Origin: an uncultured bacterium
Lineage (GTDB): Bacteria > Patescibacteriota > Saccharimonadia > Saccharimonadales > Saccharimonadaceae
Assembly (NCBI GenBank): GCA_903866605.1
Contig: CAIPOF010000055.1
Location: 1 to 53,775, forward strand
DNA length: 53,775 bases
Direction: 5' to 3'
The notes under the pieces are model-generated. The model was not told where the DNA came from. It searched no databases and saw only the letters and a list, made by a program, of their open reading frames with translations. A program made the translations under genes and the position numbers. Below are positions 1-22,876 of the stretch, one piece after another. Each line of letters begins with the position of its first letter. The first letter of the stretch is position 1.

Positions 1-1137
1 ATAATTATGAGTGGTGATTTTTTTCAATTGCCACCAATAAATCGAGGTGATTCGCGGGCCGGTGGTTTTGTAGTAAATAGCAAAGTCTGGCAAGAACTAG
101 ATCCAACTATCTGTTATTTAAGTGAACAATACCGTCAAGATGACGAAGAATTGATAGACATTTTGAATTCAATGCGATCTGGTGAATTACGGCGCAATCA
201 TGCCGAGAAATTGTTGGCACGGATAGATGTTGAGTCAGGCTCAAGGGAATTAATGACTGAACTTCATACCGTTAATGTTGATGTAGATCGTCTGAATAGC
301 GATAGGCTAGACTTGCTGGGTGGTGATGAAGTATTTTATACACAAACTACAACAGGTAGTAAAAATTATGTCGAAAGTTTGCAACGATCAGTTCTATCAC
401 CTGCAACGTTACGATTGAAAAAAGGTGCTTTTGTCATGGCGGTAAAAAACAGTCCAATCCGAAAATACGTGAATGGCAGTCTGGGAACTGTAATCGATTT
501 TGAGTCAGCCACAGAATACCCAATTGTGGAGTTTAAAAACGGCAAGGTAGTGACAATGCAGCCCGACACCTGGGAGTTGCGCGATGGTGATAAAAAACGA
601 GCCAGCATTACGCAAATTCCACTGCGTCTGGCATGGGCTATAACCGTGCATAAATCCCAGGGAATGACCTTGGATGCTGCCAGAATTGATTTGCGGAAAG
701 CCTTTGTTGAAGGCATGGGCTATGTTGCGTTAAGCCGAGTAAAAAATTTGCGCAGTTTGTATTTATCTGGTATTAATCAAATGGCTTTTCGTGTTAGTCA
801 AGATGCCCAAACGATTGATGTTTTATTGCGAGATAAAGCTAGTAAAGATTTAAAAAAATTTGCTCATCTTGAAAATGTAGCTAAAAAAAGAAAAGAAGAG
901 GCACCTAAAAAAATAAAACAAAAATCGAGTGGTTGGACTGCTAAAATTGCAAAAATGCGCGAGACATACCCTAACGCCTACAAACCATGGGAGAAAAAAC
1001 AAGATGATTTATTAAAGGAAAAATTTCAAAATGGAGCAACAATTAAACAGTTGAGTGATCTGCTTGGCAGACACCAAGGATCGATTACTATGCGCCTGCA
1101 GAAACATTTTGGCGAAGATATTGGTATAATGAGTTAA
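1..1137 (+). CDS. PIF1/RecD-type SF1 helicase, C-terminal portion (5' end outside window)
   Basis: Frame 1 is open from base 1. It begins inside helicase motif GDFFQLPPI, followed by ITVHKSQG and GYVALSRV motifs typical of Pif1/RecD helicases. A Lys-rich linker and a small HTH-like C-terminal module (IKQLSDLLGRHQGSITMRL) follow. Confidence 0.75.
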   Translation: MIMSGDFFQLPPINRGDSRAGGFVVNSKVWQELDPTICYLSEQYRQDDEELIDILNSMRSGELRRNHAEKLLARIDVESGSRELMTELHTVNVDVDRLNSDRLDLLGGDEVFYTQTTTGSKNYVESLQRSVLSPATLRLKKGAFVMAVKNSPIRKYVNGSLGTVIDFESATEYPIVEFKNGKVVTMQPDTWELRDGDKKRASITQIPLRLAWAITVHKSQGMTLDAARIDLRKAFVEGMGYVALSRVKNLRSLYLSGINQMAFRVSQDAQTIDVLLRDKASKDLKKFAHLENVAKKRKEEAPKKIKQKSSGWTAKIAKMRETYPNAYKPWEKKQDDLLKEKFQNGATIKQLSDLLGRHQGSITMRLQKHFGEDIGIMS

Positions 1138-19445: not shown

Positions 19446-19562
19446 TATTGGACTGCATCAGAGTTTAATAGCACTAATAGTAATGAAATGAATTTTAATA
19501 CTGATGTCTGGGGCTATATGAGTAAAACTAACAATGGTAATGTTCGTTGTGTAGTGGACTAA
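19446..19562 (+). other. In-frame continuation of the pilin gene beyond the TAA stop (38 codons plus stop)
   Basis: It translates to YWTASEFNSTNSNEMNFNTDVWGYMSKTNNGNVRCVVD. This aligns without gaps to the C-terminus of the 51214-53685 protein. Confidence 0.6.
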
Positions 19563-19573
19563 TTGAAAAAAAT

Positions 19574-20431
19574 TTATCGTAAAGTCCACTGATTTCCACC
19601 TAACGCGCGGATTGTACCAGATATTTCCATTGTTGTTAAAGTCATTGAAAATTCACTAGCATCAAGTTCAGACAATAACTGTAATTCGTCGCCATCGCGA
19701 ATACCAGATTGTAACAGACTAATAATCTTGGATTCTTGTGGATTAGACCCCAGTGCCAGTGATGTTTGAGGTTGTAATAAATCTGGGGCAATAATTTCTA
19801 ACACATCCTGTGCACAAGTAATCGGATGAGCGCCTTGTTTTATTAAATTATTACATCCAGCCGACATCGGACTGGTTATATTACCTGGTACAACAAACAC
19901 TTCCCTTCCTTGTTCTAGGGCGTGCATAACAGTTGATAACGTTCCACTGCGACTTGCGGCCTCAGTCACTATCACTGCATCAGATAAGCCACTTACGATG
20001 CGATTGCGTTCTAGGAACTGAAAATCACGAGCTTCGGTAATAGGTTCGTATTCACTAATCATTGCTCCACCACCTTTGATAATATCTTTGGATAGATTAA
20101 TATGCGTTGACGGATAAATAGAATCTACGCTGTTTGCCAAAACTGCCAGTGTTATTCCACCAGCGTCGAGTGTTGCGCGATGAGCAATCCCGTCAACTCC
20201 TAGCGCAAGTCCACTAACAACAATAACCCCCTGTTTCGCCAAATCGAACGCCAGTTGATAAGTCACTTCCCTACCATAAGCGGTTGGCTTGCGAGATCCT
20301 ACAATGGCAACAGTTGGTCGGCGTTTTTCAGGTAATTTGCCGATAAAATATAATGTTTCTGGACATTTGGCAATAGTATCTATAATCTGTAGATATTTAT
20401 GGCTATGGGGTGATATTTTATTGATTTTCAT
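19574..20431 (-). CDS. dprA: DNA-processing protein DprA
   Basis: VAIVGSRKPTAYGREV, VVSGLALGVDGIAHRA and SRSGTLSTV motifs. Confidence 0.9.
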   Translation of the reverse strand: MKINKISPHSHKYLQIIDTIAKCPETLYFIGKLPEKRRPTVAIVGSRKPTAYGREVTYQLAFDLAKQGVIVVSGLALGVDGIAHRATLDAGGITLAVLANSVDSIYPSTHINLSKDIIKGGGAMISEYEPITEARDFQFLERNRIVSGLSDAVIVTEAASRSGTLSTVMHALEQGREVFVVPGNITSPMSAGCNNLIKQGAHPITCAQDVLEIIAPDLLQPQTSLALGSNPQESKIISLLQSGIRDGDELQLLSELDASEFSMTLTTMEISGTIRALGGNQWTLR

Positions 20432-20451
20432 ATAATTTATGTCGAAAAGTG

Positions 20452-20480
20452 TTGACTTATTGTCAAATAAGTGCTAATAT
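20452..20480 (+). promoter_or_regulatory. Near-consensus promoter with extended -10
   Basis: TTGACT (20452-20457), a 17-nt spacer ending in TGC, then TAATAT (20475-20480). There is no annotated plus-strand gene downstream. Confidence 0.55.
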
Positions 20481-20486
20481 CAGTCT

Positions 20487-20752
20487 CGATTGGTTACATT
20501 GCGAGATTAACCAAACGCACCTTATACCCCTATTCTAACTTATGTTAGATTATATACAATGTTTTTTTAAGGTAGACTACCCTCCAACCTTAAGAAATGA
20601 TACTTCGAGTATAAGCATTGTATATATACTAATCCCTTTAACCAGCAGGTGTCTGCGATTTAGTCGAGACCTACCTAGCTTGCCCCACGGGTGGGTTAAA
20701 GGGTAAAATAGCGCCCTCAGCGAAGCCCACCCTTGCTGTGGGCGCTTTTTTT
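20487..20752 (+). ncRNA. Candidate structured small RNA of unknown family
   Basis: Bounded by the promoter above and an intrinsic terminator. It has an 11-bp stem (20551-20561 / 20616-20626). An inner 11-bp hairpin (20563-20573 / 20587-20597) has one G-U that works only on the plus strand, and its loop contains CCCUCC. A 10-bp stem joins 20634-20643 and 20694-20703. Confidence 0.45.
20710..20752 (+). terminator. Intrinsic terminator, probably bidirectional
   Basis: GCCCAC-ccttgct-GTGGGC (alternatively AGCGCCC...GGGCGCT) is followed by T7 (20746-20752). On the minus strand the same hairpin is followed by AUUUUACCCUUU. Confidence 0.6.
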
Positions 20753-20771
20753 GCCCAAAATTTCGTCCTGC

Positions 20772-20885
20772 CGAACCATTAGGCTATCAAATCTTCCGGG
20801 CCGCTTTACGTGTGACTTTGTCAGCACGTGGCGCTAGGCTTCGCTAACGCTCTCATCCCTTCAGATTTAATAACCTAACGGTTCG
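20772..20885 (-). ncRNA. Candidate structured RNA element downstream of pth, unknown family
   Basis: A 23-bp closing helix (20772-20794 / 20863-20885) whose three non-Watson-Crick positions are G-U only on the minus strand. It encloses two hairpins. Confidence 0.4.
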
Positions 20886-20960
20886 TGATTACAAACATTT
20901 TGTTCCTTACATCCTTAATGGTATGAGATTGTATTGTCATATTCCAATAGCCAATAGCTA

Positions 20961-21527
20961 TTAGCTAATCTTGTGGCTTGTGTGTTCGAGTGAACTACTG
21001 CAAAATTGAGTAACTAATTTAACAGAATGCGGAATTATTTTTTCAATCAATAAGGTTAATTCGGGGTTAGTGAATTTTGCCAGTACAAATGACGCATCAT
21101 CTATTTTTACTTCTGACTCGATTGCAATACCTATTTTGATGCGCGTATACGGTGAGTCAATGTGGGTATTTATGGATTTAATACCGTTATTACCTGCGTC
21201 ACCGCCTTGTTTCCGAATTCGTATGGTACCAAATGGCAAACTTAAATCATCATGAATAACAAGTAAATCACTTGCGGTATCGAGCTTGTAAAAGTCGACT
21301 AACTTTCTGGCGGATATGCCTGTATCGTTATAATAAGTGGTTGGTTTAGCTAATATCACCTTCTGACCATCAATTTTAACCTCAGCGATAATAGCATCAA
21401 ACTTTGACTTTTTGGTCCATTTTGCGTCGTGCATGGTAACAATTGTGTTCAATACTAAAAACCCGGCATTATGTCGCGATAATGAGTAGTCTGGTTCGGG
21501 GTTGCCTTGGGCAAAAATCAGTTTCAT
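20961..21527 (-). CDS. pth: Peptidyl-tRNA hydrolase
   Basis: MKLIFAQGNPEPDYSLSRHNAGF, VIHDDLSLPFG and GGDAGNNGIKS motifs. It overlaps der by 4 nt. Confidence 0.9.
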   Translation of the reverse strand: MKLIFAQGNPEPDYSLSRHNAGFLVLNTIVTMHDAKWTKKSKFDAIIAEVKIDGQKVILAKPTTYYNDTGISARKLVDFYKLDTASDLLVIHDDLSLPFGTIRIRKQGGDAGNNGIKSINTHIDSPYTRIKIGIAIESEVKIDDASFVLAKFTNPELTLLIEKIIPHSVKLVTQFCSSSLEHTSHKIS

Positions 21528-22876
21528 TTAACTTTTTCCTCTTTTTCACGGTTGGCTTTAATCTGTTTTTCATCACGGAAACTAAATTTAATTGGCGTGC
21601 CAGTATAATTATAGGTTTCACGAAGTTGTCGTTCCAGATATCTTTTATAACTCCAGTGTAGATATTTAAGATTAGATCCATAAATAACAAACCACGGTGG
21701 AGTTGTGTCTGTCTGGACTATATAACGCAGTTTTGGATGAGTATTTTTAAGTCCTGCTGGAGGATGGCGCTGAATACTTTTTTGTAACATGTCGTTTAAA
21801 ACACGTGTTTTAGTTTGTTGTTTACGCCTATTATCGATATCTAATGCCAAATCAAATAATTTTGTAACGTTTTGGCCAGTTACACTACTTGTAAAAATTA
21901 GCGGTGTCCAAGGTGTAAAATCAAATGTTCTAGATATTTTGGGGGCTATTCCGTCACGAGTATAGGCGTCTTTGCCTTCGATACTATCCCATTTAGTAAC
22001 GACAATTACCATTCCCTTGCCTGCTTCGTCGATTATTCCAGCTATTCGTTGATCAAGTTGTGTGTTCAGCTCATTGACATCCATCAACAGCAAACAAACG
22101 TCTGATTCTTCAATGGCAGCCAAACTACGCAGGACGCTAAATTTTTCAATACCGACCTCTTGTTTGCCGGGTTTACGAATACCAGCAGTATCCAACAACT
22201 GAATATCTCGATTACCATATCTGACAGATACGCGATTTACATCCCTAGTGGTCCCAGCTACATTGGCAACAATCGCCTGTTGTTTGCCAGCTAGTGTATT
22301 AAATAAATAACTTTTGCCAACATTTGGGCGACCAATCAATGAAATGCGCAAAATATCATCAGGTACATATTCGCTTTTTTCAGGTATTTGACTGACAATT
22401 TCGTCTAAGACATCTGTGATGCCTTGATTATGTTCGGCACTGGTTCGAATAATTTTTTTAATACCAAGGCGTTTGAACTCGTCAATTGGCAAACTGTTTT
22501 TCAGATCGGCTTTGTTAGTCAGCAATATTACTGGTTTTTTACTGCGCAGGGCCTTTTTGGCTATTAAACGATCCTGGTCACTGGTATATTGGCTGCTATC
22601 AACGACAACCAAGATAATATCAGCTGTATCAGCCGCATCGGTAATTTGATCCTGAATTGATTCCTCAAACTCGTCATCGGGGTCTTTTAGCCCGGCGGTA
22701 TCAACTATCCAAAAGTTGTGTTTTTTGTATTCTACGCGTCCTAGGACGTTGTCACGAGTCGTTCCGGCTTCTCGGGCGACAATTGCTTGCTGTGAACGCA
22801 TAAAACGATTAAAAAGCGAACTTTTGCCAACGTTCGCTTGACCGATAATTGCAACTGTGGGTAATTTTGATGCCAT
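21524..22876 (-). CDS. der: Ribosome-associated GTPase Der (EngA)
   Basis: Two G domains (GQANVGKSSLFN/DTAG/NKAD and GRPNVGKSYLFN/DTAGIR/TKWD) plus a KH-like C-terminus. Confidence 0.95.
   Translation of the reverse strand: MASKLPTVAIIGQANVGKSSLFNRFMRSQQAIVAREAGTTRDNVLGRVEYKKHNFWIVDTAGLKDPDDEFEESIQDQITDAADTADIILVVVDSSQYTSDQDRLIAKKALRSKKPVILLTNKADLKNSLPIDEFKRLGIKKIIRTSAEHNQGITDVLDEIVSQIPEKSEYVPDDILRISLIGRPNVGKSYLFNTLAGKQQAIVANVAGTTRDVNRVSVRYGNRDIQLLDTAGIRKPGKQEVGIEKFSVLRSLAAIEESDVCLLLMDVNELNTQLDQRIAGIIDEAGKGMVIVVTKWDSIEGKDAYTRDGIAPKISRTFDFTPWTPLIFTSSVTGQNVTKLFDLALDIDNRRKQQTKTRVLNDMLQKSIQRHPPAGLKNTHPKLRYIVQTDTTPPWFVIYGSNLKYLHWSYKRYLERQLRETYNYTGTPIKFSFRDEKQIKANREKEEKVK

Follow-up and report, generated by a model that had tools for sequence, protein, structure and literature searches.

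Described bacterial RNAs with which the element reported here invites comparison are the RoxS/RsaE small RNAs of the Bacillales, the raiA motif and other orphan non-coding RNAs, the small RNAs that repress competence in streptococci and Legionella, and 6S RNA. The raiA motif often adjoins the competence gene comFC, and the streptococcal csRNAs pair at the ribosome-binding sites of competence genes and so repress them. Legionella RocR is a small RNA that represses competence genes in the same way (PMC6744872), and the four C-rich regions of RoxS pair with G-rich sites in messenger RNAs (mRNAs) (PMC5419742). According to a preprint on the TM7x transcriptome, no small RNA has been validated in the Saccharibacteria or Patescibacteria (10.1101/2022.03.25.485537). 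Here we analyze a 53,775-nucleotide (nt) stretch of DNA from an uncultured member of the Saccharimonadaceae (contig CAIPOF010000055.1, forward strand; hereafter the window) and report that positions 20452–20752 on its plus strand are the gene of an independently transcribed, stable, structured non-coding RNA that was previously uncatalogued. This RNA represents a well-supported new family that matches nothing in Rfam and is so far confined to Saccharibacteria.

Gene boundaries, distribution and transcripts

The gene occupies a gap of 529 base pairs (bp) between dprA (19574–20431, minus strand) and pth (20961–21527, minus strand). Its promoter (20452–20480) is its own, a strong sigma-70-type promoter that is near-consensus with an extended −10 element: the −35 box TTGACT (20452–20457) is followed, after a 17-nt spacer, by TGcTAATAT (20472–20480). 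A promoter scan scored this site at 9/12, plus the TG extension, and the site is conserved. With the 5' end placed from the −10 box, the predicted transcript runs from promoter to terminator over 20487–20752, i.e., about 265 nt, compared to 240–450 nt in relatives. Only one terminator-like site was found in the 2.2 kb scanned (19500–21700); it lies on the plus strand and comprises a core stem (20725–20743) followed by GCTTTTTTTG (T7). Because the A-run pairs with the T-run, the full helix of this terminal hairpin, P4, spans 20705–20751. At the 3' boundary, conservation by blastn ends at 20751 and a metatranscriptome contig ends at 20752. The preliminary description of this DNA had already pointed out the near-consensus promoter and the strong T7-tailed intrinsic terminator, both of which are present as described, and had proposed that they delimit a self-contained unit for a structured plus-strand RNA. 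This proposal is borne out by promoter conservation in 54/54 loci, covarying helices, strand evidence, a non-conserved reading frame and gene-confined transcripts in relatives.

We used DprA as an anchor to collect homologous loci. The nearest relatives of the DprA protein of the window are proteins named Candidatus Saccharibacteria, and the region also occurs in lake-water metagenomes. Species-representative genomes yielded 80 loci, 56 from Saccharibacteria and 24 from other phyla, and 54 of the Saccharibacteria loci were complete; labels such as L009 and L136 denote homologous loci compared with the window. The RNA unit with its promoter adjoins dprA in all 54 complete loci, each of which carries TTGAC-N17-20-TAnnnT on the same strand and at the same distance from dprA. 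Searches by blastn with the intergenic region showed that 20432–20751 is conserved beside dprA, at up to 90% identity where the DprA protein is only 80% identical, and in a comparison of 21 close relatives, conservation of the RNA region exceeded that of the dprA coding DNA in 20. With a covariance model built on the 3' half, we obtained exactly one strong match per Saccharibacteria locus (36–149 bits) and no match in the 24 loci from other phyla.

Since this sample was anchored on dprA, metagenome contigs were independently scanned with a 20-mer around the terminator loop, which returned 120 loci. Among the 97 with at least 700 nt upstream, a divergent dprA was located 255–442 nt away in 80. 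The remaining 17 have no adjacent dprA; most of these are full homologues confirmed by the model, and their neighbor is topA (divergent) or pth (upstream, same direction). The RNA gene sits in a loosely conserved pth/RNA/dprA/topA neighborhood, and the variability of its neighbors (dprA in about 80%, otherwise topA or pth) argues that it is a free-standing gene rather than an appendage of dprA. Besides the conserved promoter, the unit has its own terminator, provided by a U-run on P4 in most loci and by a separate terminator after P4 in others. In five lineages (L025, L030, L032, L035, and L038), P4 retains its invariant loop and lacks the U-run, and a GC-rich hairpin with a T-run follows 30–60 nt further on. 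The retention of P4 where the U-run was lost indicates that this hairpin is a functional structure in its own right, and the RNAs of these five lineages should have a longer 3' end.

Expression data came from assembled metatranscriptome contigs of relatives, which carry no strand information. A 258-nt contig from a freshwater-sediment metatranscriptome is 92% identical to the window, spans 20545–20752, with its end at the terminator. Four independent RNA-seq metatranscriptomes each yielded contigs of 163–234 nt for the rumen homologue L136, all wholly inside the RNA gene (positions 426–704 of that locus); the same four runs gave none in the flanking DNA on either side, which takes in the beginning of pth. 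Contigs of L044 were likewise limited to the RNA gene, with none in the dprA coding region. Transcript detection, one of the checks suggested in the preliminary description, has therefore yielded gene-confined contigs in relatives: RNA from the gene is present in metatranscriptomes and RNA from its flanks is not.

The element resembles no catalogued RNA. Searches with Rfam 15, another suggested check, found only transfer RNAs (tRNAs) in the whole window at gathering score, only chance-level matches at E ≤ 10 on 20380–21000, and nothing for the RNA at gathering score in 20 diverse homologous loci. ARAGORN detected no transfer-messenger RNA (tmRNA). In the literature that could be searched, papers on comparative discovery of non-coding RNAs and on the biology of Saccharibacteria and the candidate phyla radiation make no mention of such an RNA.

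Fold, compensatory changes and strand

The plus strand (267 nt) folds with a minimum free energy (MFE) of −89.2 kcal/mol, compared to −57.1 ± 4.7 kcal/mol for 200 dinucleotide shuffles (z = −6.8), and none of the 200 shuffles folded as well; the minus strand of the same region gave z = −4.2. Seven helices were found in the RNA of the window (P1, P1b, P2/P2a/P2b, P3/P3a, and P4 elements), with P2, P2a, and P3 present in both the MFE and the centroid folds. These three are the long helices named in the preliminary description, and all were recovered: P2 with 11 bp, P2a with 10 bp including one U-G (20563–20572/20588–20597), and P3 with 10 bp. P1 (20490–20514), P1b (20534–20549), and P3a (20645–20679) are additions to that list, as is the loop of the terminator (20724–20732, AGCCCACCC), which went unmentioned and is the most conserved part of the whole element.

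The 5' part of the RNA begins with the terminal hairpin P1, closed by a GCGA loop; a hairpin is retained here in 54/54 homologues and its stem sequence depends on lineage. The conserved single strand J1/2 follows (20517–20533, GCACCUUAUACCCCUAU; consensus GCACCUUAUACCCC(C)UAU), which has invariant alignment columns, holds the first C-rich motif and has a mean unpaired probability of 0.78. P1b is a small hairpin, UUCUAAC-UUAU-GUUAGA, in which 96% of alignment cells are paired and whose loop takes lineage-specific hairpin inserts. The P2 domain (20551–20626) combines the outer stem (20551–20561/20616–20626), P2a and the variable hairpin P2b (20600–20612). P2a carries the apical loop L2 (20573–20587, UAGACUACCCUCCAA), the second C-rich motif, which is anti-Shine-Dalgarno-like and has a mean unpaired probability of 0.84. 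As a side observation, L016 (2620–2800, minus strand) has an insertion of about 180 nt at the P2b position, for a total length of 451 nt.

The linker J2/3 has the consensus AUACUAAY and leads to the three-way P3 domain (20634–20703). This comprises the closing helix CCCUUUAACC/GGUUAAAGGG (20634–20643/20694–20703), P3a and a G-rich junction, GGGUGGG (20689–20695). The long hairpin P4 (20705–20752) also serves as intrinsic terminator, with its stem at 20705–20723/20733–20751, a T-run at 20746–20752 and a conserved G-U pair; its consensus is a hairpin of about 17 bp with a 9-nt loop, WGCCCACCC. That loop, L4, holds the third C-rich motif, has an unpaired probability of 0.85 and contains GCCCACCC, which is invariant in 54/54 dprA-anchored loci. 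Three architectural groups were distinguished, i.e., window-like RNAs, RNAs with an insertion of about 70 nt in P3a, and RNAs with GCGGACC...GUGAGGUGGGUCACGC in P3a; the last group is the most widespread and includes rumen Nanosyncoccus. The insertion of about 70 nt, seen in L019, L021, L026, L029, L031, L032, L034, and L040, has its own conserved sequence, GUUCAAAG...ACUAUNCAGUAGUG, and resembles an AGUA/GAA loop-E-type motif.

One segment has two mutually exclusive conserved partners: GUUAG (20544–20548) can pair with CUAAC upstream (20535–20539, in P1b) or with CUAAU downstream (20629–20633; CUAAY in the alignment, as an extension of P2). Both pairings are 100% compatible with the alignment and double changes occur in neither. 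This could reflect a conformational switch or merely a repeated motif.

We then asked how the alignments support the helices. In the full-length test, a structure that we specified was applied to 21 close relatives (82 pairs), with 500 shuffles and structures slid by 1–3 columns as controls. Standard pairs filled 94.4% of cells and double changes were observed in 27 of the 82 pairs, a result matched by 0/500 shuffles; the slid structures were only 35–48% paired. Double compensatory changes affected 6/11 pairs of P2 and 8/10 pairs of P2a. For the 3' domain, aligned by the model across 53 species, 96.3% of cells were paired and 33 of 38 pairs showed double changes, again with 0/500 shuffles matching. 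All 16 modeled pairs of P4 vary in these species, 15 of them by double changes, and P3a covaries in both the full-length and the 3'-domain alignments. An anchor-based tally that is independent of the model alignment showed positions 1–9 of P3 to be paired in 53–54 of 54 species, with double changes at six positions; variants of this helix include CUCCUUAAC/GUUAAGGAG, CCCUCUAAC/GUUAGAGGG and CCCCAUAAC/GUUGUGGGG. Judged from these alignments, a fixed architecture of P1, J1/2, P1b, the P2 domain, the three-way P3 domain and P4 is maintained by compensatory substitutions.

The same data identify the functional strand. The 3'-domain model scored 146.6 bits on the plus strand of the window, compared to 29.2 bits on the minus strand. 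Many of the conserved pairs are G-U: a nearly invariant one lies beside L4, and a U-G pair occurs in 20/53 species at one P3 position; since such pairs become A-C mismatches on the other strand, they indicate that the plus strand is functional. This strand is also the one to which the promoter, the additional terminators and the model score point. A minus-strand RNA or a 5' leader of dprA was considered and ruled out by the G-U pairs, the scores (29 versus 147 bits) and the plus-strand promoter.

An open reading frame (ORF) of 54 codons (20542–20706, plus strand) exists as stated in the preliminary description, which also noted that it lacks a Shine-Dalgarno (SD) sequence; we judge it not to be a gene. 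The possibility that a small protein is made from it is negligible. The ORF is present in the window, but its frame is retained in only 3 of 54 loci (the window and the two near relatives L009 and L015), the homologous ATG is missing in 28/54, and in most other ATG-bearing loci the frame extends for 5–40 codons, with a few longer. Indels in the alignment span 1, 2 and 13–14 columns, i.e., not multiples of three, and the substitutions are compensatory for helices. A comparison of helices and codons in relatives had been suggested as the means to tell a small RNA from a small protein; helices are conserved and the frame is lost, excluding the latter outcome. Based on the alignment, the RNA gene encodes no conserved peptide.

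Possible functions of the RNA

The three C-rich motifs are predicted to be largely exposed, with mean unpaired probabilities of 0.78–0.85 compared to 0.36 for the whole RNA. L2 presents UACC(C)UCC in the apical loop of nearly all homologues, in the form CUACCCUCC or, in animal-associated lineages, UUACCUCC. The best reading of the element, which we put forward tentatively, is that it may be a trans-acting RNA whose C-rich motifs base-pair with purine-rich sites in mRNAs. The layout of the motifs matches that of the C-rich regions of RoxS/RsaE, and we take trans base-pairing to be the single likeliest mode. Under such a mechanism, the scaffold would display three pyrimidine-rich single strands (ACCCCC of J1/2, CUACCCUCC of L2, and GCCCACCC of L4), these motifs would pair with SD-like sites or G-rich 5' ends of mRNAs and thereby alter translation or stability, and P1 and P4 would shield the two ends of the RNA.

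Several observations weigh against a role in mRNA pairing. Complementary sites for the C-rich motifs were sought in the 54-kb window and in 411 kb of related loci, a search that covers no whole genome and has little power, and the only sites found were the RNA's own antisense and a promoter-box coincidence upstream of topA. The preliminary description had suggested that the CCCUCC loop pairs with ribosome-binding sites, as in several Gram-positive regulatory small RNAs: the loop is indeed conserved and predicted to be unpaired, but the target prediction that was suggested for it returned no mRNA target in the available sequence. SD-like sequences precede only about 17 of the 41 window genes (~40%), and many genes look leaderless. 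The RNA is two to three times larger and far more elaborate than small RNAs of the RsaE/RoxS type, and in its size, its multi-stem junctions and the conserved nucleotides at its junctions it looks more like a protein-binding, sensing or catalytic RNA than a simple base-pairing one. In addition, L4 has a perfect 7-nt complement within the same RNA (GGGUGGG, 20689–20695), with a GGUGG partner in 53/54 homologues, so that L4 may be buried in a pseudoknot. The RNA evidence itself consists of strandless assembled contigs of relatives, and the transcript ends are predicted ones.

Some of these points suit a different account, in which the RNA is compact and its conserved loops serve tertiary structure, as a protein scaffold or decoy (e.g., for a recognizer of the C-rich 3' tail of 16S ribosomal RNA (rRNA)), a ligand sensor or a catalyst. 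We regard this as possible: the likelihood that the RNA binds a protein or is a compact sensor is only slightly below that of pairing with mRNAs. Consistent with it are the multi-domain build, which includes a three-way junction, the fixed points at which lineage-specific expansions occur, and the invariance of certain loop and junction nucleotides. The same holds for the internal complement of L4 and its GGUGG counterpart, the persistence of the P4 hairpin where it no longer terminates, class-wide conservation above that of the neighboring protein gene, and the resemblance of J1/2 and L2 to the anti-SD tail (ACCUCC in several lineages). However, pairing of L2 and L4 with the interior of P3 could not be separated from composition in a shuffled-loop test (mean z of −0.66 and −1.24, respectively, with the C-rich and G-rich composition confounding), and the loops show no covariation because they are invariant. 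The gene context, where neighbors vary, hints at no protein partner or ligand, and there is no similarity to riboswitches or ribozymes in Rfam. A kissing interaction between the P1 loop and L2 was also considered and rejected by inspection: the P1 loop is unconserved in many lineages and L2 is conserved.

Less probable accounts address the locus or known RNA classes. It is quite unlikely that the unit primarily regulates dprA locally, either by promoter competition, with transcription diverging from a palindromic −35 region common to both genes, or through an overlapping antisense transcript, with the RNA product secondary. The start of dprA, which has no SD sequence, does lie 20 nt from the −35 box, this box forms a palindrome (TTGACnnnnnGTCAA) conserved in many loci, and the two genes adjoin in 54/54 dprA-anchored and 80/97 loop-anchored loci; but purely local control is difficult to reconcile with the 17 loci that carry the full RNA and promoter without an adjoining dprA, and promoter interference alone does not explain strong structural selection on the 265 nt downstream. 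Still less credible, and highly unlikely overall, is a diverged housekeeping RNA missed by family models, such as a 6S-like RNA, RNase P RNA, signal recognition particle (SRP) RNA or tmRNA. Sequence searches are notorious for missing 6S RNAs, and a housekeeping role would agree with the size, the strong promoter, the clade-wide conservation and the abundance in metatranscriptomes, yet neither Rfam (the window at E ≤ 10, or the 20 homologues) nor ARAGORN gave a match. A 6S closing stem with central bubble is absent, since the 5' and 3' ends are unpaired; nor is there an RNase P P1/P4 framework or a tRNA-like domain, and the universal motifs of RNase P (conserved P4) and SRP RNA (domain IV) are absent from the sequence. 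Finally, the fold is complex and conserved and ends in a terminator hairpin, the loop of which could take part in a pseudoknot; these features might recall a riboswitch or other cis-regulatory leader of a downstream gene. Such a role is most improbable given that no conserved co-directional gene follows: in the window the next genes have the opposite orientation, in relatives the RNA is followed by a new promoter or an unrelated gene, and no anti-terminator pairing with the P4 stem is evident in the fold.

An unlikely but distinct idea is that the RNA mimics the pyrimidine-rich 3' tail of 16S rRNA, presenting ACCUCC/CCCUCC/CCCACCC on a pseudoknotted scaffold. It might then be a lineage-defining ribonucleoprotein or regulatory RNA that titrates SD-led mRNAs, or else a factor binding the 16S tail, and thereby tunes how far translation is SD-led or leaderless in organisms rich in leaderless genes. 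If true, this would be a global translational control RNA without a described counterpart.

Neighboring elements and relation to known RNAs

Other features of the region were recorded alongside the RNA gene. The −35 box lies in a conserved palindrome (TTGACttattGTCAA, 20452–20466), and dprA, which may be leaderless, and the RNA gene may share one promoter/operator region (20432–20466). A further conserved stretch, non-coding and about 60 nt long (ATTTTATAACAyTTTT...AATAACAATAAGCryTTTCACCCCTGTAAAA), lies directly upstream of the RNA promoter in lineages that are rumen- or animal-associated, independent of the preceding gene; it was seen in L136 (~810–880, minus strand) and also in L103, L110, L111, L116, L133, L164, and L181. 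Upstream of the RNA gene of L044 (2966–3002), an A-rich segment with a −35 box (AAAAAGTGTGAAAAAAGTGTTGACA) matches many rumen contigs with unrelated flanks (depth 417, run X26) and resembles a promoter module that those genomes employ at numerous loci.

Downstream of pth, the minus strand of the window at 20772–20885 folds into a long hairpin of 114 nt whose tip is branched (z = −5.7); the element is single-copy in the window. A separate Rfam search with this element gave no credible match. It is common to L017 only, with two compensatory stem changes, and its core (20807–20840) reaches high depth among the short contigs of a single run, which suggests that many strains conserve it; the element may be another RNA outside known families. 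The preliminary description had the plus-strand transcript converge on this element and share its terminator with it, which holds here and in L017, but not elsewhere, the arrangement being outside the conserved unit. Across the window, many genes have a TATAAT-like box 7–14 nt before the start codon and no SD sequence (e.g., starts 1140, 22876, 31104, 32701, 33818, 41670, and 50572). About 24 of the 41 long ORFs lack an SD-like sequence, which suggests, from sequence features, that leaderless mRNAs are widespread in this Saccharibacterium.

The genomes of Saccharibacteria, like those of other Patescibacteria, are tiny and contain very little non-coding DNA. An RNA of 240–450 nt that is kept in every lineage examined, has a near-consensus promoter, is conserved above the adjacent protein gene, and is seen in lake, sediment and rumen metatranscriptomes is therefore likely to be important for their lifestyle. 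It extends the short list of widespread bacterial RNAs without an assigned function and offers a new marker gene for genome annotators. The family is experimentally tractable now, since Southlakia epibionticum and Nanosynbacter lyticus are transformable and transposon sequencing (Tn-seq) data exist (PMC10633639).

Among known RNAs, 6S RNA (RF00013) is comparable in being non-coding, abundant and stable, in occurring clade-wide and in having a strong promoter. In contrast to 6S RNA, however, the Saccharibacteria RNA forms no rod with a central bubble, leaves its ends unpaired, is a string of independent domains and does not match the 6S model. Like RocR and the csRNAs, it has an anti-SD-like sequence and adjoins a competence gene; those RNAs are simple and 60–150 nt long, whereas the Saccharibacteria RNA is larger and has no complementarity to dprA, which lacks an SD sequence, or to its neighbors. 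Closer in scale are the raiA motif (RF03072), OLE, ROOL and GOLLD, which are also a few hundred nt long, independently transcribed and marked by conserved nucleotides and covarying helices. They too were recognized only comparatively, with an obscure biochemical function, and the Saccharibacteria RNA usually lies beside a competence gene of its own, dprA. It differs from these orphan RNAs in architecture, motifs and phylum and has no match to their models (for raiA, at E ≤ 10 and among the homologues).

The RoxS/RsaE family (RF01820) shares with the Saccharibacteria RNA a free-standing gene that runs from promoter to intrinsic terminator and is conserved well past one genus, as well as several C-rich regions placed in loops and linkers, here ACCCCC of J1/2, CUACCCUCC of L2 and GCCCACCC of L4. 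No similarity in sequence or to the covariance model of that family was found, including at E ≤ 10 and in the 20 homologues. RoxS/RsaE RNAs belong to the Bacillales, are about 100 nt long (90–120) and form two to three hairpins, whereas the RNA of the Saccharibacteria (Patescibacteria) has about 265 nt, seven helices and a three-way junction. In its general layout, the Saccharibacteria RNA resembles the C-rich regulatory small RNAs, but its size is much greater, its build more elaborate and its conservation far wider.

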